Source: Mobula birostris (Eukaryota). From it: 64,000 bases of DNA. This document shows positions 4,962 through 46,690 of this stretch, in pieces (positions within the stretch are counted from its first letter, which is position 1; each line of letters starts with the position of its first letter). Where the stretch lies: the NCBI RefSeq assembly GCF_030028105.1, contig NC_092392.1, positions 46,795,628-46,859,627 of the forward strand. The letters run 5' to 3'. The notes under the pieces are model-generated. The model searched no databases. It was given only the letters and a program-made list of their open reading frames with translations, and was not told where the DNA came from. Both the position numbers and the translations under genes were made by a program.

Positions 4962-7225
4962 TTTCAACTAACCCGCTCTGCTCCTTTGCCTGGTCTGGAT
5001 CTTTTCATCTCTGATTGCCAACGAGACTGTAACCATTTCGATTTCAACGTTCCTCTCTCCTCCTGCAACCTGACCCCTTCAAAACGCACTGGCCTCCATT
5101 CTCCCAGCACCAGTCCCAAGCTCACCATTAAACCTGCAGAAAAAGGGGATGCTGTTGTAGTGTGATGTACCAACCTCTACCTGCGGAGGCCAGGCAGCAA
5201 CTCTCAGACGCCTCCTCATACCTACACCTCGAGGAGGACCCCACTCCACACCATCAGAAAACTGTCTCCAACACCATCCCTGACCTCATTCACTCTGGAG
5301 AACTCCCAACCACTGCCACCAAACTCATAGTCCCCTTACCCCGCACTGCTCGTTCTACCTCCTACCCAAGATCCACAGACCAGACTGTCCGGGTAGGCCC
5401 ACTGTCTCTGCCTGCTCCTGAACTGGCGTCCTCATATCTCAATTCCATTCTATCGCCCTTGGTTCAGTCCCTTTCCACCTACATCCACAACACTTCTCTT
5501 GCTCTCAATCTTCTCAGTAACTTTCAATTCCTTGGCTCTGACCGCCTCATCTTCACCATGAACTTTCAGTCCCTATACACTTCTACCCCCCCTCAGGAAG
5601 GTCTCAAAGCTCTCTGCTTCTTTCTTGACAAAAGGACTAACCAATCCCTTAACACCACTACCCTCCTCCATCTGGCAGAACTGGTCCTCACCCTCAACAG
5701 GTTTTCCTTTGGCTTCTCCTACATTCTCCAAACAGAAGGGGCAGCCATGGTCACTCACATGGGTCCAGGCTCTGCCTGTCTCTACGTTGGCTATGTAGAA
5801 CAGTCTTTGCCAGTTATACTCCCTTACTCTACCTCCACCACATTAACAACTGCATTGGTGCTGCTTCATGCACCCATGCTGAGCTCATCAATTTTATCTC
5901 TAACTTCCACCCTGCCCTTAAATTCATTTGGGCCATCTCTGAGACCTCCCTCCCCTTTCTTGCTCTCTCCACCTCCATCTCTGGAAACAAACTGTCGAAA
6001 GACATCTTTTATAAACCTGATGACTCCCATGGTTATCTCAACTACACCTCTTCCCACCCTATCTCCTGTAAAAGTGCTATTCCTCTTTCTCAGTCTCTTT
6101 GCCTCTGCCGGATCTGTTCCCAGGATGCGGCTTTCACTTCCAGGACATCAGAGATGTCTTCCTTCTTCAAAGAACAGAATTCCCCTCCCTCTACTATTGA
6201 TGCTGCCCTCACTTGCTTCTCCTCCATTTTCTGTACATCCACACTTACCCCATCTTCCTGCTGCCGTAGTAGTGATAGAGACCCTCTTGTCCTTACCTAC
6301 CACCCCATCAGCCTCTGCATTCAACACATTATCCTCTGCAACTTCCACCATCGCCAAAGGGATCCTACAACTAAACATCTTTACCTTCTTTCCTCTCCGC
6401 TTTCTGCAAGGAACGTTCCCTCCATGATTCCCTTGTCATTCGTCCCTCACCTCTGCTCCCTCTAGGCACTTATCTCTGCAAGCAGAAGAGACCTGCTGTG
6501 CTACACCTGCCCATACACTTCCTTCCTCACCTCCATTCAGAGACCCAACAGTCCTTTGAGGTGAGGCAACAATTTACCCATGAATCTGCTGGGGTCATCT
6601 ATTATGTCCAGTGTCTTCTCTACATCGGTGAGACCTGTTGTAAATTGGAGGACCACTTCTTCGAGCATCTCCACACCTTCAGCCCCAAGGGTGACTTCCT
6701 GGTTCCCAAATATTTTAACTCTGACTCCCATTCCTGTTGCAATGCATTGATCCATGACGTCCTCTTGTGCTAATATGAGGCCAGCCTCAGAGTAGAGGAG
6801 CAATACACAATATTCCATCTGGGTATCCTCCAACCTGATGTCATGAATATCGATTTCTCTTTCCAGTGAACAAATTCTTCCCTCTCTCTATTGCCCATTC
6901 TGAGCTTTCACTTCTTCTCACCTGCCTATTACTTCCCACTGTGTCCCCTCCTCCTTCCCTTTCTCCTGTTGTCCACTCTCATCTCTGTCAGATTCTTTCT
7001 GCTCCTGTCCTTGACCTTTCCCACCCACTTCGCTTCACCAATCACCTTCCAGCTAGCTTCATTCCCCTCCCCCCAACATTACATTCCGGCCTCTTCCCCC
7101 TTCCTTTCCAGTCCTGTTATAGGGTCTCAGCCCGAAACATTGACTATCTGCACTTTTTCATAGATGCTGCCGGACATGCTGAGCTCCTTCAACCTTTTTG
7201 TGTATGTTGGTTTGGATTTCTCATG
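4962..7225 (+). mobile_element. Penelope-like element (RT + GIY-YIG endonuclease), 5'-truncated and frameshifted
   Basis: IKPAEKGDAVV, MNFQSLYTS and AMVTHMGP..ACLYVG RT motifs; GIY-YIG VIYYVQC..LYIGET..L.DHFFEH; pyrimidine-rich 3' UTR and conserved terminus. Confidence 0.9.
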
Positions 7226-8410
7226 TTTTCAACTAGACTGGCCGGGCATAATTTAAAACCAGAACCCAATGGAGAGGTCAATGGATGGCTAATTTTAAGT
7301 GACTCAATGCCAGTTTAAGCAGCATTGGGGAGTCCTCTGTGTTCGCCAGCATTAGGAAGCAATAGGTTGTAACGTTTGCTAAGACGTGGACAATGGAATC
7401 TAGAGACCAAAAAAAAAGGGGAGGGAAACAAGCCAATAAATTTTGTCCCAGACTATTACCACCCCAACTGAAGTGGTCTACACATTTATTCCTGCCTGCC
7501 TTACTGATCTTTCTCAAGCCTTCTAGGGGTCATTATTGGCATAACACTTGCTCATTATTTAACAGGTTGATTCAATGCTTCCTTGGTGCAGCTGAAATGG
7601 GAAGGGTGATAAGGCATGTATAGACAGCACCAAAAGTTTCAAAAGTCCATTAAGAATGATTACTGAACATGCAATGGAGCAAGACAACAAAAGCTGCTTT
7701 CATTTTCAAGTGGGTATATTCAGAGACTAGAGGATAAAACATTAAGACTTGGGGAAATTTTAAAAGCAAGCTGTATTACCCTTCTAAACTCTTTTGCTAT
7801 TTGGTTGTAATATTTGGTTATTAGGTTCCGAAGAGTTGCAACAAAAATAATTTCAAAATATCAGGTTTGCAATGTTCTGTGTTATTTGTACATTTTGGTT
7901 CAATACCTTAATTCTCTTGGGTAAAGTAAAATCAGAGTAATTCAAATATGACAAATTCTGGCAACTATGGTCAGAAAATAGTACCAGTCACACCTTTTTA
8001 AAATTGATTTATTACCATGGTGTGCTAAAAATTACTGGCCCTTTAAAAGTATAAAACCATTTCACATGAAACATACTTTAAAACACTGAATACATATGAG
8101 AGAATCTTCATGAATCTACTACAAATCAGAAATGCTTTTGGACATCTCTCCACCATCATAAATTGAAGTAACCAACTTTCTTAATTGTATACCGTATTGA
8201 CAAGGACAGGTAATGTTTGCAATTTAGGTCATGAAAGTGCCAGTGAAATGGAAATCCAAATGCTAATTACACAAAAAGAGCACAGCATCTTTCAATAATT
8301 CATAACAATAAAACTCCAAAAGATTAACTTCCATAACCATTAAATCTGGAGCCCAAACTTACTAAAGCAGAACTCATGATTCCCATTCGTACAAGACTCT
8401 GACATTACAA

Positions 8411-8602
8411 CACAAACAAGAGGAAATCTGCAGATGCTGGAATTTCAAGCAACACACATAAAAGTTGCTGGTGAACAGAGCAGGACAGGCAGCATCTGTA
8501 GGAAGAGGTACAGTAAACGTTTCGAGCCAAGATGTCAACTGTACCTCTTCCTAGAGATGCTGCCTGGTGTGCTGCATTCACCAGCAACTTTTATGTGTGT
8601 TG
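8411..8602. mobile_element. Penelope-derived palindromic mini-element with 13-bp TSD
   Basis: Arms about 8450-8514 and 8538-8602 are reverse complements; TSD tctgacattacaa at 8398-8410 and 8603-8615. Confidence 0.85.
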
Positions 8603-8890
8603 TCTGACATTACAAACTCCCTTGTGTGCGCACCATCACAATAACTCACAATATCAAACATCCTTCCTTCACAATACTACGAGATTACAATTTCATAATA
8701 TCACAATGTTAGATTATTTTCAATCAACTTGCAATTATATGTCAATATCATAATTGTATTTATCTGTGTAAATACTACCTGTCTTTGTATTCAGTCACCT
8801 CGGATAATTGTAGCAGCTGCTCAACTTCAAAACAAAAATTCACTTTGATCCTTTCTAACAGATAAGGTGTTTCATTGATTCATACCATAC

Positions 8891-8989
8891 CTTTCTGGTC
8901 TGAACCTTTATTTTCAGAAACTCTGCCTCTCGACTGAGGGCCTGCCAAGGGGCATGTATCCTGACATAGCCAATGCCATGGGAGTTACA
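8891..8989 (-). CDS. ANO2: Anoctamin (ANO2-like) next coding exon, 99 nt; absent from the ORF track
   Basis: Acceptor tattctttcag|, donor AAG|GTATGG, phase 0-0 and in frame with the 25200-25526 exon. Encodes [33 protein letters not shown], matching the anoctamin [15 protein letters not shown] motif of the ANO1/ANO2 33-aa exon. Confidence 0.92.
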
Positions 8990-9396
8990 CTGAAAGAATA
9001 AAACAAAGTAAATTAAAATTAGTTACAAGTAAGTGTTCAGAAGAGTTCAAGAAAGGTAAAAAATCATTACACAAAATTCACACACCCCATTCTTTAGGGT
9101 ATTAATGTCACCCACCAAATCACCTATTTTCCCAATTTTCCAAATGCTCAGATTGGTAGAGGAATCATGCATCTTATTGCTTCATTCCTCTAGATCTGCA
9201 GTCTCCTTCTGAAACTCATCTGATGCTACCATAACCATCCCAAATATCCTTGCTGTTCTAAGTTACTCATCCAAGTTTAAGGTGAGTACCTCAGCCTTTC
9301 CTTCACCGTTTAAACACAAAGAACACCAACAGGCTGAAGCCAAAGTGGAATTTTAGAACAGATTACTGCAAACAGAGAAGAGGATAATTTATCCTA

Positions 9397-11122: not shown

Positions 11123-11124
11123 TC

Positions 11125-11870: not shown

Positions 11871-12107
11871 TGAACATGAGCACTCAGCTGAACGATTCTC
11901 AGAAGGGTGACAAACGAAACTGAGAGCAGCAAGGTCAGATAGTTTTCAACTGGGAAGGAAATCCAAATATGAGGACAAAAACCCCTAATTCTGTGCTCTC
12001 CATTTCTCAGCATGTGTTCTGTCAATCAATCTCAAAGTCTTGTATCTTTCAATAGGTGTAGAAATTGACACCCTTTTGTTGGTATAAAATAACAAATGTG
12101 TATTCCA

Positions 12108-12734
12108 AGCAACACACATAAAAGTTGCAGGTGAACGCAGCAGGCCAGGCAGCATCTCTAGGAAGAGGTACAGTCGACGTTTTGGGCTGAGACCCTTCAT
12201 CAGGACTAACTACAAGAAGTGCTAGTAAGAGATTTGAAAGTGGGAGGGGGAGGGGGAGATCCAAAATGATAGGAGAAGATGGGAGGGGGAGGGGTGGAGC
12301 CAAGAGCTGGACAGTTGATTGGCAAAAGGGATATGACAGAATCATGGGACAGGAGGTCTAAGGAGAAAGGAAAAGGGTTGGGCGGAGAAAAAACTAGAGG
12401 ATGGGTTAGGGGTATAGTGAGAGAGACAGAGGGAGAAAAAGGAGAGAGAGAAAAAGAATGTGTGTATATGAATAAGTAACAGATGGGGTACGGGGAGAGG
12501 TGGGGTATTAGCGGAAGTTTGAGAAGTCAATATTCATGCCATCAGGTTGGAGGCTACCCAGACGGAATATAAGGTGTTGTTCCTCCAACCTGAGTGTGGC
12601 TTCATCTTGACAGTAGAGGAGGCCGTGGATAGACATATCAGAATGGGAATGGGACGTAGAATTAAAATGTGCAACTAAAACCAGCAACTTTTATGTGTGT
12701 TGCTTGAAATTCCAGCACCTGCAGATTTCCTCGT
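12108..12734 (-). mobile_element. Short Penelope insertion (3' terminus plus inverted terminal copy) with 14-bp TSD
   Basis: TSD aaatgtgtattcca at 12094-12107 and 12735-12748. Contains the end of the GIY-YIG CDS and the 3' UTR; the terminus is repeated inverted at about 12681-12734. Confidence 0.88.
12171..12208 (-). ncRNA. Minimal hammerhead ribozyme motif in the Penelope terminus (one core substitution)
   Basis: Minus strand reads TAGTC-CTGATGA-AGGGTCTCAGCCC-AAAA-CGTC-GACTG: stem I AGTC/GACT, intact CUGAUGA, stem II GGG/CCC, GAAA changed to AAAA (CpG-type change), GUC cleavage triplet. Confidence 0.7.
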
Positions 12735-13849
12735 AAATGTGTATTCCATTTCAGCAATCCAGTCCTATAAAAATCAATGGACTAAATCTTGGAATTACAA
12801 TGACAGCACTAACTACAAGTACATCTAGGGGCTTGTGAATTACAGAAGTTTATTTGGCCCATCAGAACATTTTAATATAAATGACCGGGCATGAAGGGCT
12901 TGCTCCAGAAAGTCAAGCCAATCAGCCATTCCCTCAATTCCAAATATCCTCCTGGTTGACTGGAGCATCAAGGGACCAATGAATCACGACTGCCTCCCAC
13001 ATAACATGCATTTATGTGGATGAAATTGGACACAGTGATTCAGCATTAATTAAGTCCCCTTTGGTTGAATGAATATCATGGGCCAGAGAAGGAGCACCAA
13101 TGGCCACCTGAGGACAACCTAAAGCTTCAAGTACTCATGAAGGCCCCCAATCTACCAAAAATTAAAAGGTCTGCTCATTCAACTGTCTCTCCCATGTGAA
13201 TAACTATGCCCTGTTACATTAGTCTGCTTGAAAAATAGTGATTAATTAATTAGTTCATTTGAAACTGTGCACAAGCTGCTCGAACCGGTTAGTTCTCTCT
13301 GGAATTTCCATAGCACTGGCTAATTAGGTGGACTAATGACGTTATAAACTACAGCGAATGTTGCTCTCTTCCTTCAGAAAGTTTACATCTCTTCATGTAA
13401 AATGGTACAAAACATTTTCAGACCCTCAGGAAAGAAGCAGAACCAAACAGCGCAAGTGCTCAGAGATTGCCAACCAGGTTTTCAGGTCTGTACACATTTG
13501 GACTGCTCGTGGTTTCTGCATCTCTGCCTTCCAAGTCCAAAAGCCCAGTCTCTGCTATTCATTCATTGCTTCTTGCTAAGAGGAAGCCTCACTGAAAACC
13601 TGCACTGTGCTAGAGAAATGATCAAAGGTAAATATTAAAGGTACTTTATAAATAAAGTGAAAATCCAAACTGAAAAGAGCCAATACAAAACAGGTCATAA
13701 ACAACAATCACTGCGGATCCTGGTTACCACAATAATAACATAGTAGTAATGGTTACAAGACAAGATCACAAGACAAAGGAGCAGAAGTAGGCTATTCAGC
13801 CCATGGAGTCTACTCTGCAGCGCCCTCATGAGCTAAACTATTCACCCAT

Positions 13850-16700
13850 CTAGTTCCAATTTCCGGCTTTTTCCCCATATCCCTTGAAACCCTGACTAAT
13901 TAGATACCTGTCAATCTCCTCCTTAAACACCCTCAATGATCGGGCCTCCACAGCTGTATATGGCAACGAATTCCACAAATCCACGAATCTCTGGCTAAAA
14001 AAATTTCTCCTCATCTCTGTTTTAACTGGGTACCCTCTAATTCTAAGACTATGGCCTCTTGTCCTGGACTCACCCACCAAGGGAAACAACCTTTCCACAT
14101 CTACTCTGTCCAACCCTTTCAACATTCGAAATGTTTCTATGAGATCCCCTCTCATTCTTCTATACTCTAATGAATACAGTCCAAGAGCCGACAGACGCTT
14201 CTCATATGTTAGCCCCTGCATTCCAGGAATCATCCTCGTAAATCTTCTCTGAACTCTCTCCAACATCAGTACATCCTTTCTAAGATAGGGGGCCCAAAAC
14301 TGCACACAGTATTCCAAATGAGGTCTCACTAATGCCCCATAGAGCCTCATCAACACCTCCTTACTCTTATACACTATTCCTCTTGAAATGAATGCCAACA
14401 TAGCATTACTACCAATCCAGCTTGGTGGTTAACCTTTAGGGTATCCTGCACGAGGACCCCCAAGTCCCTTTGCACTTCCGATTTTTGAGTTTTCTCCCCA
14501 TCTAAATAATAATCTGCCCGATTATTTCTTCTTCCAAAATGTACAACCATACATTTTTCAACGTTGTATCTCATCTGCCATTTCTTTGCCCACTCTCCTA
14601 AACTGACTAAGTCTCTCTGCAACCTTTCCGTTTCTTCAACATTTCCTGCTCCTCCACCTATCTTGGTGTCATCCGCAAATTTAGCCACAAAACCATTTAA
14701 TCCATAATCCAAATCATCAATATACATCGTAAAAAGAAGCCGCCCCAACACCAACCCCTGCGGAACATCACTGGTAACCGACAACCAATCAGAATAGGAT
14801 CCCTTTATTCCCACCCTTTGCTTTCTGCCTATCAGCCAATTCTGCACCCATTTCAATATCTTTCCTACAATTCCATGGGCTCTCATCTTATTAAGCAGCC
14901 TCATATGCAGCACCTTATCGAAGGCCTTTTGAAAATCCAAATACACAACATCCACAGCCTCTTCCTTGTCAATCTTATTCGAGATTACCTCAAAAAATTC
15001 CAATAGGTTGGTGAGGCAGGATCTTCCCTTCATGAAACCACACTGCCTTCGGCCTATCTTGTCATGCATCTCAAGGTATTTCATAACCTCGTCTTTGAGG
15101 ATTGACTCCAATATCTTTCCAACTACCGATGTCACACTAATAGGTCTGTAATTTTCTTTTTGCTGTCTCCTTCCTTTTTTAAATAGCGGAACTACATTTG
15201 TGACCTTCCAGTCCTCCAGAACCATGCCAGAGTCTATTGATTCCTGGAAGATCATTTCCAATGCTTCCACAATCTCCAAAGCCACCTCCTTCATAACCCT
15301 TGGGTGCACCTCATCCGGACCGGGAGACTTATCTATTCTTAGTCCACTCAGCTTCCCAAGCACTTTCTCTCTAGTAATCTTGACTGTACCTAATTCTATT
15401 CCCTGATACCTCTGGTTATCAAGTATATTGCTCATGTCTTCCACTGTGAAGACTGATGCAAAATACTCATTCAGTTCCTCCGCCATCTCTTTGTTATCCA
15501 TTATAATTTCTCCAGCATCATTTTCAATCGGTCCCACATCTACCCTTGTCACTCTTTTACTCTTCATATATTTAAAAAAACTCTTAGTATCCTTTTTTAT
15601 GTTAATCACCAACTTCCTTTCATAATTCATCTTTTCTTTCCAAATGACTTTCTTAGCTTCCTTCTGTAAGTTTTTAAGTCTTCCAGTCCTCATTTTTCCC
15701 ACTAATTTTTGCTTCCTTGTACACCGTTTCTTTTGCTTTTATTTTTGCCTTAACCTCTCTCGTTAGCCACATTTGTGCCATTTTTCCATTCATGATTTTC
15801 TTTTTTCTTGGAATATATTTTTCCTGCATTTTCCTTATTTCTTGTAGGAATTTCATCCAATTCTGCTCTGCCATCCCTCCATTTAGCTTACTTTTCCAAT
15901 CGACTTGGGCCAGTTCCTCTCTCATACCACTGTAATTTCCCCTGTTCCACTGAAATATCGATACACCTGATACCAGCTTCTCCTTTTCAAATTTGAAACT
16001 GAACTCAATCATATTATGATCATTACTTCCAAGGGGTTCCTTTACCTCCAGCTCCCTAATCGCCTCAGGTTCGTTACACAGCACCCAATCCAAAACAGCC
16101 GGTCCCCTGGTGGGATTCTGGACAAGCTGCTCCAAAAAGCCATCCTGTAGGCATTCTACAAACTCCCTCTCCTGAGATCCATTACCTTTCCGACTTTCCC
16201 AATCCACTTTCATATTAAAATCCCCGATAATTACCTTGACATTTTCCTTCTGACATGCTTCTTCTATTTCCAACTGCTACTTGTAGTCCACATCCTGGCT
16301 GCTGTTTGGAGACCTGTATATAACTGCTATTAGTGTCTTTTTACCCTTGCCATTTCTTAATTCTACCCATAAGGATTCTACCTCTTCTGATCCTATGTCC
16401 CTTCTTTCTATTGATTTGATATCGTTACTTACAATCAGGGCCATGCCACCCCCTTTACCTACCTTCGTATCCTTCCTGTACACTGTGTATCCTTGGATAT
16501 TCAGCTCCCAACCACATCCATCATTTAGCTATGACTCGGTGATGGCCACAATGTCATATCTTTTAACCTGCAGCTGTGCAGCAAGGTCATCCACTTTATT
16601 TCTAATGCCGTGTGCATTTAAGTACAGTACATTTAGATCAGTATCTGTTGCCAATTTTGCTATATTTCTATTTTGCAGCAAATTATCCTGTATATTCACC
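13850..16700 (-). pseudogene. CR1 ORF2 (APE endonuclease + reverse transcriptase), disrupted
   Basis: LYLNAHGIRNK, IIGDFN, LGSNDHN, YLDFQKAFDKV, PQG.VLG, KFADDTK and RPHLEYCVQFWAP motifs, split over ORFs 16277-16483, 15674-16273, 14374-15702 and 13850-14401. Confidence 0.93.
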
Positions 16701-16805
16701 GGCCTGTCCTTCTTGCCATCTTTGCTGCACAGTATTTTTGACTTATTTCTATTTTCCTCTTCCTCGACCCTAACACCTTGGCTTCCTTCCCCTTGCCAAC
16801 TTGGT

Positions 16806-17657
16806 TTAAACCTCCCTAACAGCTATATTAAAGAATCCCGCCAGGATATTAGTACCTTTTGAGTTCAGGTGTAATCCATCTTTTTTGTATAAGTCATACC
16901 TTCCCCAAAATAGATCCCAATGATTCAAGAATTTGAAGCCCTGCCCCCTGCACCAGTTACTTAGCCACACATTCATCTGCTTAATTCTGCTATTTTTACC
17001 ATCATTAGCGCGCAGCTCAGGCAGCAATCCTGATATTATTACTCTGGAAGTCCGTCTTTTCAATTGTCTTCCTAGCTCCCAGTAATCTTTCTTCAGGACC
17101 TCCTCTCTTTTTCTGTCTATGTCATTGGTACCAACATGTACCAAGGCTTCCGGCTGCTCGCCCTCTCTCCTCAGAATACTCTGGACTCGATCTGAGACAT
17201 CCTGTACCTGGGCACCAGGGAGGCAACACACCATCTGGGTATCCTTGTCCGGCTCGCAGAATCTCTTGTCCGTCCCCCTTACGATGGAATCCCCTATAAT
17301 TACCGCATTTCTTCTTGCTCTCTTGATTTCCGCACTGGGCAGAATGCCAGAGTCTCGTTCACTGTGGTCCTCTTCTGTCAGGTCTGCCTCTTCAACAGTA
17401 TCCAAAACGATATATCGATTTCTGAGGGGGACTGTCACAGGGGTGCTATCCACTACCTCTCTATAGGTAGTATCTAACACCTCCTCACTTTCCCTAATTA
17501 GCCGAAGGTCATCAATTTCCATCTCCAGCTCCTTAACACGGTCCTACAGGAGCCTCATCTCAGTGCACTTGGTGCAGATATAATCCTTGGGGAGGCTGGG
17601 AGTCTCCCAGGGTCACCACATCTGGCACTCCAAGCACAACACTAATCCTAGATGCAT
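16806..17657 (-). pseudogene. CR1 ORF1 (CxxC..CxxC zinc finger/leucine zipper + SGNH esterase-like domain)
   Basis: CLECQMW*..YICTKC followed by a coiled coil, then IIGDSIVRG, HVGTND and DGLHLN esterase motifs; two in-frame stops in the N-terminal part. Confidence 0.88.
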
Positions 17658-17842
17658 ACCTCTAATGCTACTGTTTGTACTAAACACCAAAAAACTGAAA
17701 CTTACTCCATTACTATGAGACTCGACGGTCGCAGGAAGCCTCTTTTCGTCTCCGCCGAAGCCCGTTGAGCCAAAGCCCTTTCACTCTGCACCCTCTCACT
17801 CCGCAGCCCTCTCCGACGCTGCCCGCTGGATATGGCGGTTTT

Positions 17843-18132
17843 CTTTTTAAACTGTTCGTGCTCAACTGGCTGATGTCACGCGCCTGTGCAGTCTGGCCTC
17901 TCTCCTACTCCGAGAAATAAAATGTCTTCTCGCTGGAAATCCTTAGCCTCTTACCACTGTCTTCTTGATCCGAAGAGAAAAAGTTTGCGACTTCCTTCCT
18001 CTTTTTAAACTGTTCGCGCTCAACTGGCTGACGTCAGGTGCCTGCGCAGTCTGGCCCCTCTCCTACTCCGAGAAATAAAATGTCTTCTCGTTGGAAATCC
18101 TTAGCCTCTTACCACTGTCTTCTTGATCCGAA
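17843..18132. repeat. Tandem duplication in the CR1 5' UTR (132-bp unit, 158-bp period)
   Basis: ctttttaaactgttcg...cttcttgatccgaa at 17843-17974 and 18001-18132. Confidence 0.9.
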
Positions 18133-18354: not shown

Positions 18355-18605
18355 TTTGCTCTTCACCTCCTTCTGGTGCCTGTCCTCCTTCCCTTTCTCC
18401 CATGGACCACTGCCATCTCCTATCAGATTCCTTCTTCTTCAGCCCTTTGTCCCTTGTCCACCTATCACCTCCCAGCTTCTACTTCAACTACCCCACAACC
18501 TCCCACCCACCTTCCCCCTCATAGGTTTCACCAATTGCTTGCCAGCTTGTCCTCCTTCTCCTCCATCCACCTTCCTATTCGGGCTTCTCCCTTTCTTTTT
18601 CCCCC
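18355..18605 (+). mobile_element. Penelope 3' UTR fragment
   Basis: ctcctatcagattccttcttcttcagccctt..cctatcacctcccagctt, as in 6900-7110. Confidence 0.7.
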
Positions 18606-18609
18606 TTTA

Positions 18610-19325
18610 GTGTTTTAAACGTCTTTTTTTATGATCGCAAGATCATAATGCTGTACGTTAAGAACTTCAAGTACTGCAAGTCTACCCCATTAGCAAGTTG
18701 CTCATTGGCAGAGGAGCTGGACTGGTGCGGACCGTGTTGTTGGCTGCTACTCAAAGGCATCGGGGTTGGTGCATGAAGGTGGTGTGCAGTCTCACAGCGG
18801 ATGATTGTCTCAGGTAGCTCTCTTGTGATTGCAAGACCCTGTTGGACATTAGTGATGTAGAATACAGCAAGTCTGGTTCACTGGTTTATTGAAAAGACCA
18901 ATGGCGGGGGAGCTGCGTAGGCTCACTTATAGTGTGGACTGGACCTCATGCCATGGGGTCTCCTGTTGTAGCCACCCAGGAAAGGATATGTCAGAGGCGG
19001 TGTGCGGCGGCGTCCATACTGTGTTGGGGGCTGTCCCCTTCCATTGGTGCTTCCCTCCAGTGTTCGTTCGCTGGAAGACAAGCTGGGTTGTGTTCATCTG
19101 CAGAGTGCTGTGGGCCCTTTGTTGCTGACAACATCTATGTAGCATCAAACTACAGGAAATGACTCTCAGCGGCTTGAGCTAGATTAAATTTTTCTGTGTG
19201 ACTGTACACTCACTACTATTTTATGTGTGCTACATATGTTTGTGTTGTGTAATGTATGACTGTTGGCACAGTGCTTTGCACCTTGGCCCAGAGGAACACA
19301 GTGTCAATTGGTTGTTTATACATAT
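18610..19325 (+). mobile_element. Probable non-autonomous LINE-derived element
   Basis: The 3' part (gcaccttggcccagaggaacac..ttggttgtttata) resembles the tail at 11050-11100; the GC-richer body has no credible ORF. Confidence 0.4.
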
Positions 19326-23778: not shown

Positions 23779-24459
23779 AGCATACTGTGAAATATATCAT
23801 TACATTAATACACCTAAGTATGTGCTGGGGACAGCCTGCAATGTGATGTTACAGAAGTTCCTGACAGCAGAAATAGAGAAATTATTTCCACCAGTGAAAA
23901 GAATGAATATCATGGGACTCATATTTTAAATAACTCTCAAAAGAACCAGGTTGGATTTGTGTAACAAATTGTTATTGTGCAGACAAGCTGCAAAAGCATT
24001 TTGACAATAACTTTCAAAGAATTGAATATATAATTGCAACAAATTTTAAGAGCTACTGGGGAAGACTGTGGATTGGGACTGATCCTGTAATTGTACAAGA
24101 TTTGTTGAAGCAGGTAATCTTTTTATGTCTCTTTATCCCATCAAAATACTGAGATGCAACTTATAAATTAATGTCTCTGCTGTTTGTTTCTGCACAGGAA
24201 GCTTGGCTTAACTTAATGAATAGTTACTTAAAATCAGCTATGAAAAATAACATCTGTTTAAACATAAATGGATGACTGGTTTACTGAAACAGAGATGCAG
24301 AGAATTAGAAAGAGATTTATTTAACATTCCTGCATATTACCCTGGAGTAGAAATTTGAAGACCTTTCTAATTATAGAGTTCCATGTTTTATTTTCTATTT
24401 TTAATTGACTACAAAAGTTTATCTGAGATTTAGGAAAGAATTTTGTAATAAGTAGGATT

Positions 24460-24572
24460 GAGCCTGAGGAACGGTCTCAGCCCAAAACATTGACTGTTCA
24501 TTCATTTCCGTAGGTGCTGCCTGAGCTGCCGAGTTCCTCCAGCATTTTGTGCGTGTTGCTCTAAAATTCTAG
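24460..24572 (+). mobile_element. Penelope terminal fragment with a degenerate hammerhead motif
   Basis: ctgaggaacggtctcagcccaaaacattgactg..gctgcctgagctgccgagttcctccagcattttg. Confidence 0.7.
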
Positions 24573-25199: not shown

Positions 25200-25526
25200 C
25201 GTTTTGTCTTTCTCTATCTCTAGTCCGCTCTCCATGAGGTTCTTCTCAAATTCTTCTCTACGAGCTCTCTTTTCTTCCTCCACAGACCCATGCGGAATGC
25301 CAATCTCCAGCACAACCTCTTGTTGACACTCTTGATGTTCTGCGTGGTCTTTAATTTTGTGCAAAGTTGTTGCAGATCCATTCAGGACAAAAGCTCCTGT
25401 GGACAACGAAGTGACTTTTTTGTTTTGATAAACCAGGACATAGTCTACCTTTCTCTTTCCATCTCTGAAATACAAGCCTTTCTTACAGTCTTGTTTTTCA
25501 TTATCTTCAATGTAGTTGTTAACAAC
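25200..25526 (-). CDS. ANO2: Anoctamin (ANO2/TMEM16B-like Ca2+-activated chloride channel) internal coding exon, N-terminal cytoplasmic region
   Basis: Polypyrimidine tract plus AG acceptor (ttttttctctttccttag|), 327-nt open phase 0-0 exon, donor ACG|GTGAGA. Encodes VVNNYIEDNEKQDCKKGLYFRDGKRKVDYVLVY...EEEKRARREEFEKNLMESGLEIEKDKT. The VxNNY start and REEFExNLMExGLExEKD match ANO2 better than ANO1, from remembered human sequences. Confidence 0.9.
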
Positions 25527-26524: not shown

Positions 26525-26786
26525 ACACAGCAGGAGGTACTCAGTGGGTCAGATATCATCTACAGAGGGAAATGGACAGTCCAAATTTCAGGTCAAGACC
26601 CTTCATCTGCATTGAAAGATAGTGGGATAGTGGAGAAAGCCAGTATAGAAGGATGGCAGGAAGGGGTAGTACAAGTGCTGGCAGGTGATAGGTAGATCCA
26701 GGCGAATAGGTAGATCCAGGCGAGTGGGGTGATAGGCAGATGAGGAGATGCATCAGGAGCCGGGAGGAGATAGGTGGAAGTGACAA
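26525..26786 (-). mobile_element. Penelope terminal fragment
   Basis: Reverse-complement Penelope terminus and purine-rich UTR. Confidence 0.65.
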
Positions 26787-30000: not shown

Positions 30001-31866
30001 CAGTTGGTGGAATCATGAAAGAGGTTTACCGGCTGCCCAGGGGGAAGGATGTTATTAATTATGGCCGACGCGAACTGGGACGGTCACAGGCTTTTGATAT
30101 GCTAACAAACCTCGTCGGTGTTAGCGCGGAAATCAATGAAGCTAGGGTCCCTCCGATAAGAGAAAAAAACCATTTTGAAAAGATGAGTATGGTATCGACC
30201 AGATGGGAGAAGGCTATTGTTTTGGCCAGGTCTGCTGATAAGGTCTCTCCCTTAATCCCCGAACAAAGCGACTCTTTAGGAGAAGTAATTAAACGACTCG
30301 CACCCGTGTGTTTGATTGTCCGAGGCGATGCAAAGAACTGGGACGTTGGGTGGTGTCTGTTACAATAGGTCAGCCTAGTAAGCAACATCTATATAGAATG
30401 AGTAATTCAGTGACTAAAGGGCTGACGAACACAGAGGTGTGTATTGGCAATTTAATACGGCTGTCTGAAGCCAGCTTGATAGTGAAACTTGAAAAAAATG
30501 AGTTCGGCCACACGAAGGTCACTTATCTGGGAATTGTGGTGACACAGGGGCAGCTGGCAGCGATGCAAGCTACAGTGCAGGCTATCGCTGACCTCCCAAC
30601 CCCGACAGACAAGAGGGCCCTCAGAAGGCTCTTGGAGATGGTGGGGTACTGCAGGAAGTTTTGCAATAACTCTGCGGTCACTACCCCTCCCCCTCCTACT
30701 AAGCCCTTGCGAGAGAAAACTAAGTCGGAATGGGACGACCCTTGATATTGTGGTCCGGGACAAAACCAAATGAGAGGTTACATTGATCGCAATTCATCAG
30801 TGTTTTTGGCCACTATGAAGTTTGCTAAGTTGGAGCCTGGTCTAAGGGATTATTAATTACACATATAAAAGGAACAGAAAATGTGATTGCTGACTGTCTG
30901 TCAGGTGTTGACAACTTCAAACTCGCTGTATTAGCCAAATAGCTGATAAAGATGTATATTTGTGTGTGTATCAAATAATGTGTTCATGTTTGTAATTTTT
31001 ACCCCCCAGTAAAAATCCTTAAAGGGGGGAAGTGTGACAAGAATACACATAGATAAGATGTTAGCTGTCCTGTGTGATCAGCAGTTGGTCTGCCACCTGT
31101 CTTCAGGAGAGAGAGAGATAAGGAAAGCAATGGAGCAGCATTTGGAGATGTGTAATGAAGGGGAAGGAGAGCTGTCAAGATCGGCTCCCCCTTTGAACCC
31201 TGAACTGTTTGAAGTGATGGACAGGCGATACCCCAGCAGGGGGATAAAAAGGGACAGGTTCACTAAGGCAGACACACATGACACCCAAGGTAACGAGACC
31301 CTGGAAGCGGTGCGCCTCTCACAAGTCGGTGGGAAGCTTTTGGCCGGCTGATCGCGGGATCAAGCCTTAGACGCTCAGGGTGGAAAGGCACGATCGGCGG
31401 GAACCTGGTGTGTGTCCACCCTTGCCTGGGTGCCAGGTTCAGCGCAGGGAAACGATCGTATCTGGAAACGGAGGGGTCATGGTCGGTAACCTCAGATGAC
31501 ATCACAAAGGGCTCGCACGAAAGCTGACTGCGAAGGTCTGTGTGTGGAAGCTGTGTTGAATATTCATTCGTTTTGCTCTCTCTCCTTCCCCCCACTGTCT
31601 GCGAACTGAACTGAACTAAATTGAACTGAACTTTGTGTCACTTTGAAACTGGTCATTTGCCCCTAGACAACGATAGGGCTTGATTGATCCTGAATTCTGT
31701 GTACATGTATGTTTATCACTGCTGAACTGTTGCATTCATTATCCTTTTGATTAGAGTACTGTGTTGCTTGTTTCTTTAATAAAACTTTCTTAGTTCTAGT
31801 AATCCAGACTCCAACTGAGTGATCCATTTCTGCTGATTTGGCAACCCAGTTACGGGGTCCGTAACA
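27033..31866 (+). mobile_element. Gmr1-like Gypsy LTR retrotransposon, young and internally deleted
   Basis: LTRs 27033-27845 and 31033-31866 (TGTGAC...GTAACA); 4-bp TSD ATAC; tRNA-Pro-like PBS tggggttctcgtcc after the 5' LTR; PPT aaaggggggaag at 31021-31032. Confidence 0.95.
27945..30745 (+). pseudogene. gag (SCAN-like capsid domain + CCHC) - protease - remnant pol of the Gmr1-like element
   Basis: VPPF...DRYFLHFEKVA, LKGKAQEAY, YELVPEAYRQRFR, LILIEQF; CYNCGKVGHFASRC; RDTGACQSLI protease; only patches of RT remain (EFGHTKVTYLG, RRLLEMVGYCRKF). Frameshifts near 28010, 28370 and 29275. Confidence 0.88.

Positions 31867-32124: not shown

Positions 32125-32190
<66 letters not shown>
32117..32190 (+). 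repeat. (CA)n microsatellite
   Basis: About 36 AC units with one interruption. Confidence 0.95.
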
Positions 32191-32194
<4 letters not shown>

Positions 32195-37091: not shown

Positions 37092-39157
37092 TTCCTCTCA
37101 AAAAATTCAGGAATATCTGTCCAATAGCGTTAGTGGCTGGGCATCAAGGGCATCACTGACTATGCAAGGAAGAACAGATCGATTGTACCAGTGATGCCTC
37201 GCTCCCTGACACTTGCAGCAACTTTCCTGCACACTTCCAGGCATGCAACGTAACCGCTACCCCTCTCCCAGATGAGCACCCACTGTCCGTAACAACAAAC
37301 ACAAGAAGGACTCTGCAGGGAGCCAGAAACATGAGAAAATCTGCAGGTGCTGGAAATAAAAAGCAACACACACACAAATTACTGGAGGAACTCAGCAGGC
37401 CAGGCAGCATCCGTGGAAAAGAGCAAACAGTTGACGTTTTGAGCTGAGACCTTTCATTGGGACTCATGATAAGGGGTCACGGCCTGAAAAGTTGACTGTT
37501 TGCTCTTTTCCATAGATGCTGTCTGGCCTGCTGAGTTCCTCCAGCGACTTGCACGTGTTCCTCCGCAGAGAATCAACCCTTATAAGGCAGCTGGGCCAGA
37601 AAACATCCCAAGTCAAGTACTCAGGGAGTGTGCAAAACAGCTCACTGACGTCTTCAAGGACATTTCCAACACATTGTTCAACCAGACTGCTGTCTCCATA
37701 TGCTTCAAGTCAGTCACCCTCATCCTTGTACTGTATTAAGGAACTCTTACATCTTAAAAACTACTGCCCAGTGGTACTGACACCAATCATTATGAAGTGT
37801 CTTGAACGGCTGGTAATAGCACACATCAAAAGCTCCATTCCTGCCAAACTGGACACTCATCAATACGTTTATCGACATAATTGCTCCATAACTAATGTCA
37901 TAGCATCTGTCATACGCCTGACACACCTCAAATGCTGTTTCTGGATTTCGGTTTGGCATTCAACACTATTGTCCCATTGACCTTGGTGAACAAACTCCTA
38001 CTCCTTGCTCTGAATACATTACTGTGCAACTGGCTGTTGCACTTCCTACCGAGCAGACCTTAGATAGACAAAATGCACAACCCCTCCGCCCTCCCCGTCA
38101 TCCACAACATGGTTGCCCCTCAGGATTTCCAGCTAAGCCTATTGCTGTACACTCTGCTCATACATTACTGCACAGCCAGTTGCCCAAGTAATCACATTGT
38201 CAAGTTCACCAACGACACTACAGTGGTGGGGTTCATCACCAACAACAATGAGATGGCCTAGAGAGAGGAGGTGGAAGAGGGTCAAGGCCTGGTACCAGGC
38301 AAGACACCTCCTCCCCAATATCAATAAGACAAAGGAGATGGTTATCAGTTCCAGGAGAATTTGTACCATTCACACCCCGCTTTACATTAGCAGCCCAGTA
38401 GAGTAAATTGTGAGCAGTTTCAACCTTCTGACAGTGCACATCTCACACAATCTCTCATGGTCGCAGAACACATTCTACACAATCAGGAAAACTCAGCAAT
38501 GCTTCTGCTTTCTGCGGAGGCTGAAGAGAGCTGGACGATGCACATCTATACTCATGACCTTCTGCAGATGCAGAATAGAGAGCATCCTAACAAGCTGATC
38601 ACTGCATGGTACAGCAACTACATTGCAGCAGACAGGAAGGCTCTGCAATGGGTACTACAAACTGCCCCGCACATCAAAGGTACTAGCCCACCAGCCATCA
38701 AGGGTGCATATACAGATAGGTGCCGGACAAAGGCCAGTAACAACATGAAGGATCCCACCCAACCTGCTGATAGACTATTCCCCTCACTTCCATCAGGGAC
38801 GAGGCCATGTAGCATCTATGCCAGGGCAACCAGACTCAAAGGCAGTCACTTTCCCCAAGAAGTAAGGCTGACCAACACTTCCACCCACTAATCCACCCCA
38901 CCACCACTACTTTAATTTTTCCCGTCAGTCACCTTATGTATAGATATTCCTGTGCCTGGCGTCACTTTGTAGACATACAATCATTCTATGTATAGAAGTT
39001 ATCTTATGTATTTATATTTATTGTGTTTTTGTTATTATTATTATTCTGTTTCTTGTCTTATTGTGTGTTCTTTTTGAGTCGCATTGGGTCAAGAGTTAAA
39101 ATTATTTAATTCTCCTGAACACCTGTGTATTGGACAATCCTGAAGTTTGCATCTTGA
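37092..39157 (+). mobile_element. Rex1/Babar-type LINE (RT half) inserted in CR1
   Basis: INPYKAAGPENI, YCPVVLTPIIMKCLERLV, IVKFTNDTTVVG and FLRRLKRAG motifs; 3' UTR ending tcttgaa. Confidence 0.88.
37325..37560. mobile_element. Penelope-derived palindromic mini-element inside the Rex LINE
   Basis: Arms about 37380-37435 and 37491-37545 are inverted; two oppositely oriented degenerate hammerhead motifs lie in the centre. Confidence 0.8.
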
Positions 39158-40200: not shown

Positions 40201-40233
40201 GCCTGGTTCTTCAGGATTTACACATCAGAACCA

Positions 40234-41033
40234 CACTTGGTGACCACTTTATTCGGAACTGCTGCACCTAGTAAAGTGGCACTGAGGGCACGGTCGTGGT
40301 CTTCTGCTGCTGTAGCCTATTCACTTCGTTTAATGTGTTGTGCATTCAGAGATGCTCTTCTGCACACCACTGTTATAGCACGTGCTTCGTTGAGTTACTG
40401 TCACCTTCCTGTCAGCCTGAACCAGTCTGGCTATTCTCCTCCATCCTTTTATCAACAAGGCAATTTTGTCCACAGAACTGCTGCTGTTCACAGGAATTTT
40501 TTTTTGTGTTCTTCGCACTAATCAATCTATGTATTTATGTTGTTATTGTGCCCTTTATCTTGTTGTATTTTTTTTTGCACTGCTTTGGAGCCAGAGTAAC
40601 AATTATTTCATTTTCTTTTACAATTGTGTACTGAAAATGACATTAAATTATCTTGATTGCCTCATTTTATGTAAACTCCTGAGACTCATAAACACAAGAC
40701 ATTCTGCAGATGCTAAAAATCCATATATAAAAATGAATAAACTATCTGTTTCAGGTTGAGACACTGTATCAGGACTCCAAAGACTGTATGTTTTAAAATC
40801 CCAGGAGATCAGCAGTTTCTGAGCTATGCAAGCCACCCATTCTGGCACCAACAAACATTTTAAGGTCAAAAATCACTTAGATCACATTTCTTCCCCATTC
40901 TGATGTTTGGTCTTAGGAACAAATGAACTTCTTGACCATGTCTGCATGTTTTTATACATTGACTTGCTGCCACTTGATATATATTTGTTAACGAGGAGTT
41001 GTAGAGGCGTACCTAATAAAGTGGCACTGAGTG
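40234..41033. mobile_element. Non-autonomous Tc1/mariner-type element carrying nested LINE-tail (about 40520-40655) and Penelope (about 40690-40780) fragments
   Basis: TIRs cacttggtgaccactttatt / aataaagtggcactgagtg|ta; same family as 9397-9771. Confidence 0.7.
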
Positions 41034-41967
41034 TATACCTCAACAATCAGACACTGTCGGAGTTAGCACAACACACACAAAATACTGTAGGAACTCAGCA
41101 AATCTGGCAGCATCTATGGAAGGGAATAGACAATCAAAGTTCCAGGCCAAGACCCTTTATCAGGACCCTTTCTCTGAAGGAATTATCCTCTCATACAAAT
41201 GTATAATAAAATGAAAATGTAGCATTGATTTGAATCATTTTGTTTTCCTGCTAAGGGCCTGTCTGTTACTTCTACAGAGATTTGGTAAACACAACAAAGG
41301 GATTTCAAGGTTATCTGCTGAGGGATTACAAACTTCTTTTTATAGCCACCTCATTCGCTGCAGACATCTAATCCTAACATATTAGTGTCCAATCTTCTTC
41401 ATTATTAAGTCTACCTAAGTTAACAGGTATGAAGCTTTGTTTAAATGGATTTAAATAGTAATAAATAAAATATTGTTGTAGATGCCATTTTACATTACAT
41501 TTATTATAATTGAGGGCACTTTGTGCAGGCTCATATGTCAAGATGTTCAAAAGGGCAAGATAAACAATAGGATTAAAAAATTGTGCTCACATTTCAAACC
41601 GACACCAGATGAAGTTCAAACACAGGGAAATACTGAGATAAGGACGATGAATGATAGGGAAAAGGGAATATGGGAAACCAGCTTTACCTCTCTGAACCAG
41701 ATCAAAAACCAAAAAGTCTGTTTGCCCCAATTCCACAAGGGGACTAGAGAAGAGCATTTCAAAAGAGACGAACCAGTTCTAAAACAATAGTGTTTTACGG
41801 TGTAATGCACTTAAAAGTGTGAAACCATCTGAGAAAGATAAACCCACTTTATTCAATGGATGTTATTCAGACTCAGAACAGGATTAAACCTAGGATTCTA
41901 GCTATCAATCTGGTGTCAGAGATCTGTCCCACAATTGTGGTCTCCAATTAATCACCCTATTCAAATT

Positions 41968-43360
41968 AGCACTCACAACGTGCTGGAGGAACTCAGCAGG
42001 TCAGGCAGCATCCGTGGAAATGATCAGTCAATGTTTCAGGCCAGAATCCTTTGTCAGGACTGAAGAAGGAGGGGGCAGAGGCCCTATAAAGAAGGTGGGG
42101 GAGGGTGGGAAGGAGAAGGCTGGTAGGTTCCAGGTGAAAAACCAGTAAAGGGAAAGATAAAGAGGTGGGGGAAGGGAGGCAGGGAGGTGATAGGCAGGAA
42201 AGGTGAAGAAGGAATAGGGAAAAACACAATGAGTAGTAGAAGGAGGTGGAACGAAGAGGGAGGTGGTAGGCAGCTGGGGGAGGGGGCAGAGTGAAACTGG
42301 GATGGGAGATGGGAGGGGGAGGGAATTACCGGAAGTTGGAATATTCAATATTCATACCAAGGGGTTTGAGACTACCCAGACGGTATATGAGGTGTTGCTC
42401 CTCCAACCTGAGTTTAGCCTTATCATGCAGTAGAGGAGGCCGTGTATGGATATATCCGAATGGGAGTGTGAAGCAGAGTTGAAGTGGGTGGCAACTGGAA
42501 GATCCTGTCTGTTGTGGCGGACAGTGTGGAGGTGCTCGACGAAGCGGTCCCCCAATCTGCGTCGGGTTTCACCGATGTAGAGGAGGCCGCACCGGGAGCA
42601 CCGGATGCAATAGATGACCCCAACAGATTCACAAGTGAAGTGTTGCCTCACCTGGAAGGACTGTTTGGGGCCCTGAATGGTGGCAAGAGAGGAGGTGTAG
42701 GGACAGGTGTAGAACTTACACTTACAGGGATAAGTGCCAGGTGGGAGATCTGTGGGGAGGGACGTGTGGACCAGGGAGTTGTGGAGGGAACTATCCTTGC
42801 GGAAACCGGAAAGGGGTGGAGAGGGAAAGATGTGCTTAGTGGTGGGGTCCTGTTGAAGGTGGCGGAAGTTGCAGAGGATAATGTGCTGGATCCGGAGGCT
42901 GGTGGGGTGGTAGGTGAGGACAAAGGGAACTCTGTCCCTGTTGTGGTGACAGGAAGATGGGGTGAGGGCCAAAGTGCGGGAAATGGAGAAGATGCAGGTG
43001 AGAGCATCATTGATGATGGCAGAAGGGAAACCACAATCCTTAAAGAAAGGATATTTGAAATGTTCTGGAATGGAAAGCCTCATCCTGGGAGCAGATGTGG
43101 CGGAGATAGAGGAACTGGGGATAGGGAATGGCATTTTTGTATGTTGCAGGGTGGGAAGATGTATAGTTGGGGTAGTTATGAGAGTCAGTGGGCTGATTAA
43201 AGATGTCAGTGGATAGTCTGTCTCCAGAGATGGAGACCGAGAGGTCGAGAAAGGGGAGAGAAGTGTCCGAGATGGACCAAGTGAATTTGAGTGCTGGGTG
43301 GAAGTTTGAAGTAAAGTCGATGAAATTGATGAATCCAGCATGGGTGCAGGAAGCAACACC
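41968..43360 (-). mobile_element. Penelope-like element 3' part (RT C-terminus + GIY-YIG + terminus)
   Basis: RDRVPFVLTYHPTS and VIYCIRCSRCGLLYIGETRRRLGDRFVEH..VATHFN motifs. Confidence 0.92.
42025..42062 (-). ncRNA. Minimal hammerhead ribozyme motif in the Penelope terminus (core G8 mutated)
   Basis: CAGTC-CTGACAA-AGGATTCTGGCCT-GAAA-CATT-GACTG: perfect stem I, stem II AGG/CCT, intact GAAA. Confidence 0.65.
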
Positions 43361-43699: not shown

Positions 43700-43955
43700 A
43701 GTGAGTCCATATGAGACTCTTCATCTCATGATCTCAATATTTATTGCTTATTTACTATTAATATTATTTCATTGTTTTCTTTCTTTTTGTATTTGTACAG
43801 TTGGTTGTCCTTTGCACATTGGTTGTCCATCCAGTAGGAGCGATCTTTCATTAACTCTGTTATGGCTATTTGATCTACTGAGCATGCCTACAAGAAAATG
43901 AATCTCAGGGTTGTATATGATGGCATATATGTACTTTGATATTACATTTACTTGT
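43700..43955 (+). mobile_element. Rex1/Babar-type 3' UTR fragment
   Basis: Same tail as 2690-2906. Confidence 0.65.
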
Positions 43956-44299
43956 AAGTCCTGGTTAACTGAAGATTGGCCCGGAGCCCAAGGGAAATCT
44001 CCTGCTCTACCAACAGGGCCATGGGAATATCCCGTGTTACTTGGTAGGGCAGCTGGGGACTCTTATTTCAGAAATACTGATGGAGTATAATATTGCACCA
44101 GGTGCTCAACCTTTGGAAGTAGGGCTTGAATCCACTATCCTCTTACTTCGTGGTGAGGGAGCGCATCACGGGGCCAGGCGTGTACCACCAAGCAAACCCA
44201 CGCTTCATACGAGTGCGATGTTTACAAAGACTCACATGTTGCCCTCATGTTAAAATCACATCATGTGTTACCGCAATTGCTTTGTTTACACTAGAATTA

Positions 44300-45250: not shown

Positions 45251-45599
45251 GTTACGAAGTCAATCTTCTTCAGGAGTTTAACTCTGGGGGATAATTAAAC
45301 CTGTCAGACCACAGGTGGATGAATTTCAGTTGGGTGGCAGTATCAAATGAAGAACGAATGGGGATAGGTATAAACCTAGTACCATAAAAGTCAACAGGGG
45401 AGTGATTTGCCTCTATCCTGAGGAGGAGTGTCTCAAATGGGCCGTATCTTATTGGACATTAAGTAATAATTCCGGTTACTCGGCTCTGTTCCATAATCCC
45501 TTGATAACTTTAACAAAAATAGGGCAGTCTCAATCCTGAGCATATCAATTTTGTACTCACTTGGGCTCCCCAAACAGTTGAGTCGGGTTTCTATGCTGA

Positions 45600-45732
45600 N
45601 NNNNNNNNNNNNNNNNNNNNNNNNNNNNNNNNNNNNNNNNNNNNNNNNNNNNNNNNNNNNNNNNNNNNNNNNNNNNNNNNNNNNNNNNNNNNNNNNNNNN
45701 NNNNNNNNNNNNNNNNNNNNNNNNNNNNNNNN
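45600..45732. other. Assembly gap (133 N)
   Basis: Run of n characters. Confidence 1.
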
Positions 45733-46314
45733 AAACGTAACTGGAAATGCATAATGAAGGTAAATGAATATACTTAAATTTACCCGGTTCAGAAGCACAC
45801 CACCTGAGAGACTGCTAATTTATCAATCGGAAAGAGAATGATTTTTAAAAACGGACTTATCGTTATTCTCAATCATATGTTTTTCAATAACCTCATGAGG
45901 TTTCTCGTGATCATGCTCGATTTAAAAGAAAACAACAGATAATGTCTATGTAAAATACTGTTCTTTGTGCCTGTCCAATCAGATAATAATTTAAGGAGTT
46001 ATCTTTGTATAAAAAGCTGAGGATGGCATCCAAGATGTGTGTTTGCATGCTATGCAGACAACCTAGATCTTCAGACTGAGATTTGGCACACCCACTTGAT
46101 TATTTATTGAAAACTGTTCCTAACTCTAAGTCCTGACCTTTTTAAAGAATAACTAAATTTCCTTCTGACAGAAAGTCTATTTTCTGGAATGATTTTGCAA
46201 TTTGGGAATTGTTGTTTTGACAATGGAGTCATGTGTAATTGGAATCATAATTCATGTCTAAATCATATGTAATTGATTTGCAAGATAAGGCACCTGTGTG
46301 TTAATTTCCTTCTT

Positions 46315-46690
46315 TCTAGATTCCTTCTTATCCAGCCCTTTACCTTTCCCCCTATCACCTCCCAATTCTTACTTCACCCCTCCTCCCCAACCCACCTGGC
46401 TTCACCTATTGACCTTTTAGCTTGTCCTCCTTCCCCTCCCCCTTTTTTATTCTGGCATCTTCCCCTTCCTTTCCAGTCCTGATGAATAGTCTTCATTTAA
46501 GTACATAAGACCATAAGATATAGGAGCAGAAGTAGGCCATTTGGCCCATTGAGTCTGCTCCACCATTCAATCATGGCTGATCCAATTCTTCCAGTCATCC
46601 CCACTCCCCTGCCTTCTCCCCGTACCCTTTTCCATAGATGCTGCCTGTCCTGCTGCATTGCTGCATCACTTTGTGTGTGTTGTGTGTTCA
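46315..46690 (+). mobile_element. Penelope terminus split by a minus-strand CR1 3' tail (about 46503-46628)
   Basis: ttccagtcctgatgaa ... catagatgctgcctg flank cataagaccataagatataggagcagaagtaggccat, a CR1 tail like the one at 13755. Confidence 0.7.

Follow-up and report, generated by a model that had tools for sequence, protein, structure and literature searches.

Hammerhead motifs and the elements that carry them

We analysed 64,000 nucleotides of the genome of the ray Mobula birostris (contig NC_092392.1, positions 46,795,628 to 46,859,627 of the forward strand). We refer to this whole stretch as the window, and all coordinates are positions within it. The window contains two exons of an anoctamin gene and many pieces of a Penelope-like retrotransposon. 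An initial annotation of the window had reported about 10 copies of a 38-nucleotide motif in Penelope ends and had read their consensus as a hammerhead ribozyme. These motifs are very probably mutated minimal hammerheads in the 3′ end of a Neptune-type Penelope-like element, with none in the window predicted to cut RNA. The motif follows a frame for reverse transcriptase (RT) and a GIY-YIG endonuclease, and it precedes a tail of two lengths, in insertions that have target duplications and are often head-to-head.

With the 38-nucleotide consensus from that annotation as the query, an ungapped scan of the window found 10 full-length copies (2-13 mismatches), and a gapped scan also found the 19-nucleotide start of the motif at 46474-46492 (+). 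In five shuffled windows, the top local score was 24-26 and nothing reached the cutoff of 30. All ten of the copies first claimed are present at or near where they had been placed, but an inverted arm at 3034-3071 (-) and a truncated head-to-head pair at 8411-8602 had been overlooked. The copy at 46474 had been called truncated. Its 5′ half is there, but the motif is actually split by about 130 bases of another repeat, and the tail picks up at about 46626-46685. A covariance model built from the 10 copies scores those same copies at 44-55 bits (by construction) and adds weak matches in the window at 3029-3076 (-) and 46469-46497 (+).

The placement of the motifs in Penelope termini holds directly for the three copies that have a recognisable coding body upstream (by tblastn). 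In each of these, the motif sits 245-300 bases downstream of the RT/GIY-YIG frame. The body at 4995-6863 (+) is a broken, 5′-truncated Neptune-type element with RT, thumb, linker, GIY-YIG and frameshifts (tblastn of P0004 and P0022), and its motif, at 7109-7146 (+), begins about 245 bases past the end of the frame and has a mutated core 1. A second broken body, at 42329-43360 (-), retains the thumb, a cysteine linker and GIY-YIG (tblastn; the GIY-YIG match, at E = 0.0022, is below Pfam's cutoff), and is followed after about 270 bases by the motif at 42025-42062 (-), in which G8 is changed. The third coding piece, at 12684-12511 (-), is the end of GIY-YIG and lies upstream of the best-preserved motif (12171-12208 (-)), whose sole change is at G12 of GAAA. 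For another two copies, the decayed one at 26577-26614 (-) and the split one at 46474, the element sequence upstream is just the pyrimidine-rich 3′ region (about 170 bases of it at 26577). The remaining six listed copies have no element sequence upstream. Three of these are solo ends that start from the ribozyme's 5′ edge: 24459-24496 (+), with GAAA mutated; 40740-40777 (-), which is heavily decayed; and 41131-41168 (-), with both cores mutated. The decayed arm at 3067-3104 (+), with a short tail to about 3168, is paired with the overlooked arm at 3034-3071, which is also decayed and has the longer tail (to about 2944). The last two are the long-tailed arm at 37428-37465 (-), with a tail to about 37324, and the short-tailed arm at 37461-37498 (+), which have the 5-base junction 37461-37465 in common.

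Over the aligned pieces, the coding bodies are 47-85% identical to named ray proteins. The top named homologues (52-72% identity) are from Mobula, Hypanus, Leucoraja and Amblyraja, full-length relatives have RT and GIY-YIG domains, and the protein family has 20,530 representatives at E up to 0.001. A CX2-5CxxC linker between RT and the endonuclease was seen in the ray proteins P0002 and P0003, is decayed yet visible at 42329-43360, and is present in 57 of the 61 fetched proteins with a recognisable GIY-YIG box. This linker points to the Neptune clade. The 64-kb window has no full-length Penelope copy, and Pfam had no match in three of the four broken Penelope frames. When we sought peptides encoded by the terminus in 247 fetched proteins, we obtained short chance matches only.

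Some ray or skate gene models (P0001, P0004, P0006, P0011 and P0086) are partly or mostly Penelope sequence and carry host names (NLRP3-like, DIPK1C, CHID1, NMRK1 and NYAP1-like). These are likely annotation artefacts or exonised pieces. The C-terminal residues of P0006 fit an intact second core and cut site. Also, in the copy at 37320-37470 (-), a frame begins with an AUG about 20 bases past the cut site and extends through the long tail; it could mark where the element's frame starts, or be due to chance.

The insertion at 12108-12734 is entire. It consists of a short tail, the motif, the 3′ region, the GIY-YIG end and an inverted long tail (12680-12734) without a motif, and it is surrounded by an exact 14-bp target duplication (12094-12107 and 12735-12748). 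An exact 13-bp duplication (8398-8410 and 8603-8615) surrounds the pair at 8411-8602, which lacks core 1 and has its long tail on the left and its short tail on the right, and a 9-bp direct repeat with one mismatch (2934-2942 and 3171-3179) flanks the 3-kb pair. We saw no clear target duplication for the three solo copies, the 37-kb pair, or the bodies at 26, 42 and 46 kb. Each of the four inverted insertions has, by eye, one longer-tailed and one shorter-tailed arm. The two complete pairs (at 3 kb and 37 kb) join on one and the same 5-base near-palindrome, while the third pair (8411-8602) joins at a different near-palindrome, inside stem II. Comparing the window to itself identified only dispersed and head-to-head copies, with no head-to-tail tandem units. 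Penelope elements are known to have tails, inverted arms and palindromic head-to-head junctions (PMC8557442, PMC3846280), and such junctions have been interpreted as self-priming (PMC3846280). In the Anolis element, two tail lengths correspond to two internal priming sites, and both target strands are extended (PMC11167929).

Consensus, decay and predicted activity of the motif

By its sequence, this motif of Penelope ends is a minimal type I hammerhead. Its sense-strand consensus runs from a 5-pair stem I through CUGAUGA, a single unpaired A and a stem II of 4 pairs (with a loop of 4 bases) to GAAA, CG, UC and the 3′ arm of stem I. CUGANGA and GAAA had been expected in the family consensus, and both are there: CUGAUGA, the A, stem II and GAAA are the column majorities of the 10 copies. 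The majorities across CUGANGA are 5-9 of 10 copies, with G tied with A at G8, and the unpaired A between A9 and stem II is found in 9 of 10. The closing pair 10.1-11.1 is G-C in 2 copies and G-U in 6 (C11.1 is a CpG site). CG followed by UC occurs in 2 of 10 copies, and the rest mostly have CpG transitions thereof. In 5 of 10 copies, A stands at G8, and C precedes that position in one copy (alignment columns 15-16), suggesting that the sequence of older subfamilies was CUGACGA and that CpG decay removed their G8. The palindrome ACGU has no loop 3, so helix III cannot form within one molecule. The initial annotation's "complete type I hammerhead" was therefore right in that a minimal type I motif matches the published consensus, but the word "complete" does not suit a helix III without a loop.

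To estimate how abundant the family is, we mapped contigs from four sequencing runs, with two species labels, on 12050-12675 (626 bases) at 80% likeness. In the four runs, 136,287, 156,568, 7,975 and 11,533 contigs aligned somewhere on this region. These are counts of aligned contigs rather than copy numbers, but they attest to a family of very large size under two species labels. Two of the runs are tentatively labelled as RNA; as contigs, they indicate neither transcription nor RNA ends. Among the rows listed, G12 is intact in 67, 72, 76 and 72% of the depth in the four runs, which backs the correction of G12 family-wide. Also among the rows listed, loose ends pile at 12170 and 12205-12207, which are the motif's own edges, so the 38-mer is common to copies with different flanks. 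The prediction that this genome holds very many self-cleaving motifs is borne out for the abundance of the family but not for self-cleavage, as no copy in the window is intact. Pattern scans for further copies found 0 in metagenome contigs, 0 in viral contigs and 0 in prokaryote genomes. A looser pattern gave two matches (L001 and L002) in GC-rich, coding-like DNA without stem I or a cut site, which we attribute to chance; they score 21-22 bits with the covariance model, via the pattern that was used to find them.

The copies in the window are decayed fossils, judging from their letters, and none is predicted to cut RNA. Among the 10 full-length copies, CUGANGA is intact in 2, GAAA in 6 and UH in 8, and no copy keeps all three, in agreement with the earlier statement that none is fully intact. 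By our own arithmetic, about 12% of copies of such age are expected to have the whole core, so 0 of 10 is unremarkable. The lesions had been described as often of CpG type, and CpG letters are in fact changed in 37 of 80 cells (46%), versus 16% elsewhere. At non-CpG positions, the core (16 of 100 letters changed) and the rest of the motif (28 of 180) have decayed at an equal rate, 16% each.

Several results weigh against reading these sequences as Neptune-type hammerheads. Rfam found no hammerhead family among 9 matches to the window at E up to 5 (its weak microRNA matches at 8485-8566 and 37400-37526 are the head-to-head pairs); unlike Rfam's canonical type I hammerhead, the motif lacks loop 3. 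The plain majority differs from the initial consensus at column 30 (T), column 36 (a G/A tie) and column 38 (T), so the consensus requires correction for CpG decay, to which all three columns are prone. For a consensus-like monomer, the predicted fold has the first core base-paired to the cut site (-12.7 kcal/mol, versus -10.5 for the open core), and the double hammerhead, predicted at -19.9 kcal/mol, ranks behind two monomers (-25.4) and an alternative dimer (-28.6), although these nearest-neighbour energies ignore tertiary contacts in the core. Stem partners pair in 77.8% of cells, as compared to 23-46% with slid partners, but shuffles pair in 79.3%. Of 500 shuffles, 451 match this pairing and 452 attain the covariation score, so stems I and II show no excess of covariation among the 10 window copies, and the covariation check that the initial annotation had proposed fails within the window. 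This is weak counter-evidence, because ten copies that descend from a few masters and have decayed neutrally could not reveal covariation. There was no intact copy among the DNA copies that we examined. The assignment to the Neptune clade is by linker motif rather than by a tree, and Nematis shares the linker. Finally, the details of the mapped contigs come from 40 of 121 difference rows, from 15 of 218 joints and from 24 rows of loose ends.

In an active element, CUGANGA-A, the 4-pair stem II, GAAA and the loopless ACGU would take up the catalytic fold solely upon pairing of two copies or with the help of the element's own protein. The cut would come after GUC, and cleavage would be weak. In published tests, minimal hammerheads gave low or protein-dependent cleavage (PMC4209133, PMC11167929). 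The templates that were inserted would be uncleaved RNAs, as in the Anolis assays, because no arm starts at the cut site. It is also conceivable, if unlikely, that the active element needs no cutting, and that the motif is a parasite or is kept as a folded signal (for protein binding or the start of translation). In Anolis, catalytic mutants left insertion in vitro unaffected, and RNA-seq gave no reads with a start or an end at the cut site (PMC11167929). Naiad elements thrive without the motif (PMC8557442), and the absence of window arms that begin at the cut site fits as well. Against a mere signal, the exact catalytic letters recur in distant animals with differing stems (PMC4209133), and the Anolis motif cleaves with protein, with partial rescue by a compensatory double mutant (PMC11167929).

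The motifs had also been placed in host introns. We searched 361 short frames outside of repeats with Pfam: 7 had matches at E up to 0.01, and the only two above the curated cutoff are anoctamin frames. Both exons, at 25200-25526 (-; 327 nt, Pfam E = 5.1e-13, PDB Anoctamin-1 E = 3.9e-15) and 8891-8989 (-; 99 nt, Pfam Anoct_dimer E = 2.3e-6), have AG and GT borders. They encode parts of the dimerisation domain, are in phase, and are separated by a 16.2-kb intron (25199-8990), inside which lie the copies at 12171 (sense to the pre-mRNA) and 24459 (antisense). So at least these two copies are indeed intronic. The copies below 8891 are inferred to be intronic because the anoctamin protein must continue, and those above 25526 are likely intronic; Pfam on the 361 short frames identified no exon upstream of 25526. 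Relative to the gene, 8 arms are sense and 6 are antisense, so there is no sign of selection against sense copies.

It is very improbable that the copies are working ribozymes that cut the anoctamin pre-mRNA within introns: the near-intact 12171 copy is sense to the pre-mRNA and inside a proven intron, and the sense copies at 40740, 41131 and 42025 are within 1.3 kb and could in principle pair, but none of the 10 copies has a whole core, 12171 is missing G12, the proposed general base (PMC6155905), the core decays as fast as the non-core positions, and sense copies are not depleted. Since these copies are in or close to anoctamin introns, occur in both orientations and lack an intact core, we consider them fossils. 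After insertion, they would have decayed neutrally, chiefly at CpG sites, and so would be inert passengers in anoctamin introns.

The 5′ boundary of the short copies

Six of the listed copies, along with the extra arm at 3034-3071, begin at -5 to -2 before C3. These represent 5 insertion events (3 solo copies and 2 pairs), and under a simple uniform null, the rough binomial chance of such clustering is about 1e-6. Of the remaining 5′ ends, those of one pair lie in stem II, that of one arm lies in the tail and the others are far upstream, and the cut site is the start of no arm in the window. In the five copies with element sequence upstream, a pyrimidine run is followed by CAG, TAG or a decayed CAA before UC-CUGAUGA. 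The 25 bases preceding the motif in these body-linked copies are 68-92% pyrimidines, and 4 of 5 have CAG or TAG. At -5, the solo copies have G (2 of 2 directly, or 3 of 3 if a one-base gap is allowed), whereas the body-linked copies have C or T (5 of 5). The G is not a subfamily's stem pair, because the 3′ arm keeps its G. With few copies, and with a pattern that was spotted post hoc, these ends hint that a capped RNA begins there and is copied without being cleaved.

Our tentative explanation, which we hold with less than even confidence, is that the element has a capped RNA whose 5′ end is formed by the first bases of stem I, that copying of the cap adds a G, and that the short copies are run-off products that extend from internal priming sites to this 5′ end. 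A capped RNA that starts at about -4 might well be wrong, but it would be the simplest account of the clustered 5′ ends. The context of a start at about -4 resembles the vertebrate initiator. Besides the clustering itself, and the G at -5 of the solo copies without a matching change in the 3′ arm, both complete pairs join on a 5-base near-palindrome that needs the G. An extra G marks full-length insertions of L1 (PMC11702581), and internal priming at two sites was shown for the Anolis element (PMC11167929). Against a capped start, the sample is tiny and the pattern was noted after the fact; within pairs, the G is also the mere complement of the partner arm; the genome-wide piles of loose ends mix solo with body-linked subfamilies; and in Drosophila, the start is about 120 bases upstream, ahead of an intron (PMC2377424).

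If capped RNAs do start there, opposite-strand run-off cDNAs of the uncleaved capped leader could anneal via the G-completed near-palindrome to give the head-to-head pairs, which is a doubtful proposal. Similarly speculative is that the hammerhead would act as a switch that removes the cap and the first ~32 bases, and not as a cutter of tandem precursors.

A slightly less favoured explanation, and again an unlikely one, is that no RNA ends at the edge of the folded motif, and that reverse transcription stalls at this edge or is resolved there by microhomology. The junction of the third pair is a different near-palindrome, within stem II, and palindromic head-to-head junctions that were read as self-priming are known (PMC3846280); but stalling or microhomology alone leaves the G before the solo copies unexplained.

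We think it improbable that the boundary is a splice acceptor, with the short copies deriving from spliced RNAs. The pyrimidine run and the YAG before stem I in most of the body-linked copies resemble one, and in D. virilis the 5′ end of helix I coincides with the end of an intron (PMC4209133, PMC2377424). But the solo copies have no common first exon upstream, and there are 0 splice-type ends at the motif's edge among the joints listed (15 of 218).

This sharp 5′ boundary is the potentially important part of our results, as it bears on how solo and head-to-head ends of Penelope elements form and on what the hammerhead does. In a literature search, we found nothing on 5′ ends that cluster at the edge of a hammerhead. 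If the cap-and-start model is true, then the genome would preserve, in very many fossil copies, a map of where the element's transcription starts, and with a family this large, the model is testable by counting alone.

Separately, a pyrimidine-rich piece of the 3′ region at 18383-18612 (+) ends at AG just before the expected hammerhead, as a mirror of the solo ends. This may be a small deletion.

Relation to known elements, and other repeats

Minimal hammerheads in Penelope pseudo-long terminal repeats had been described as established, and they were already published in 2014 (Cervera and de la Pena 2014, PMC4209133). Because of this, our main result merely extends a known association to a ray genome; what is added is the ray genome and the high density. 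Self-cleaving RNAs that act on host introns are not supported by the main result.

The motif has the same type I layout as the metazoan hammerheads of that study, including CUGANGA with one unpaired base, G10.1-C11.1, GAAA, a loopless palindrome, UH and a short stem I. Its stem II, with 4 pairs of which one is G-U, is at the short end of their range. In both cases, most are single dispersed copies from truncated elements, with thousands per genome, but Table S1 and Figure S3 of that study do not include any cartilaginous fish. Within these 64 kb, 12 arms retain some or all of core 1, which by extrapolation suggests far more copies than the 4,000-9,000 in coelacanth and frog (PMC4209133), although our extrapolation takes in dead copies that the descriptor used there would miss. 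Our literature search found nothing on hammerheads in Penelope elements of rays; Lunse, Weinberg and Breaker, which we have not read, may list cartilaginous fishes.

Like the endonuclease-positive Penelope-like elements that form the Neptune clade (Craig et al. 2021, PMC8557442), the element here has RT and then a C-terminal GIY-YIG with a cysteine linker, and it shares the 5′ truncation, the inverted arm and the optional tail of 30-40 bases. Poseidon PAc from Anolis (Frangieh et al. 2024, PMC11167929) also has two lengths of 3′ end and inserts uncleaved RNA, and its extension of both target strands would yield head-to-head arms as seen here. However, PAc belongs to another clade, and its frame starts in stem II, where the element here has no AUG (PMC11167929). 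Non-LTR (long terminal repeat) retrozymes (Li, Clavereau, Pollet, bioRxiv 10.64898/2026.07.22.740005) are likewise short non-coding units with a Penelope-derived type I hammerhead, and they were reported in one chondrichthyan genome. They form head-to-tail tandem arrays, whereas the units here are single or head-to-head.

The window contains other repeats as well. At 27033-31866, there is an LTR retrotransposon-like element with 834-base direct repeats that are 95% alike and with gag- and pol-like frames. By eye, 13850-17543 (-) is a CR1/L2-like element with an esterase-like first frame and pieces of endonuclease and RT, and 55021-58442 has L1-like endonuclease and RT frames. There is an assembly gap at about 45460-45600 (133 N across the whole window). 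Finally, 17842-18132 is a local direct duplication of 133 bases (95% alike).

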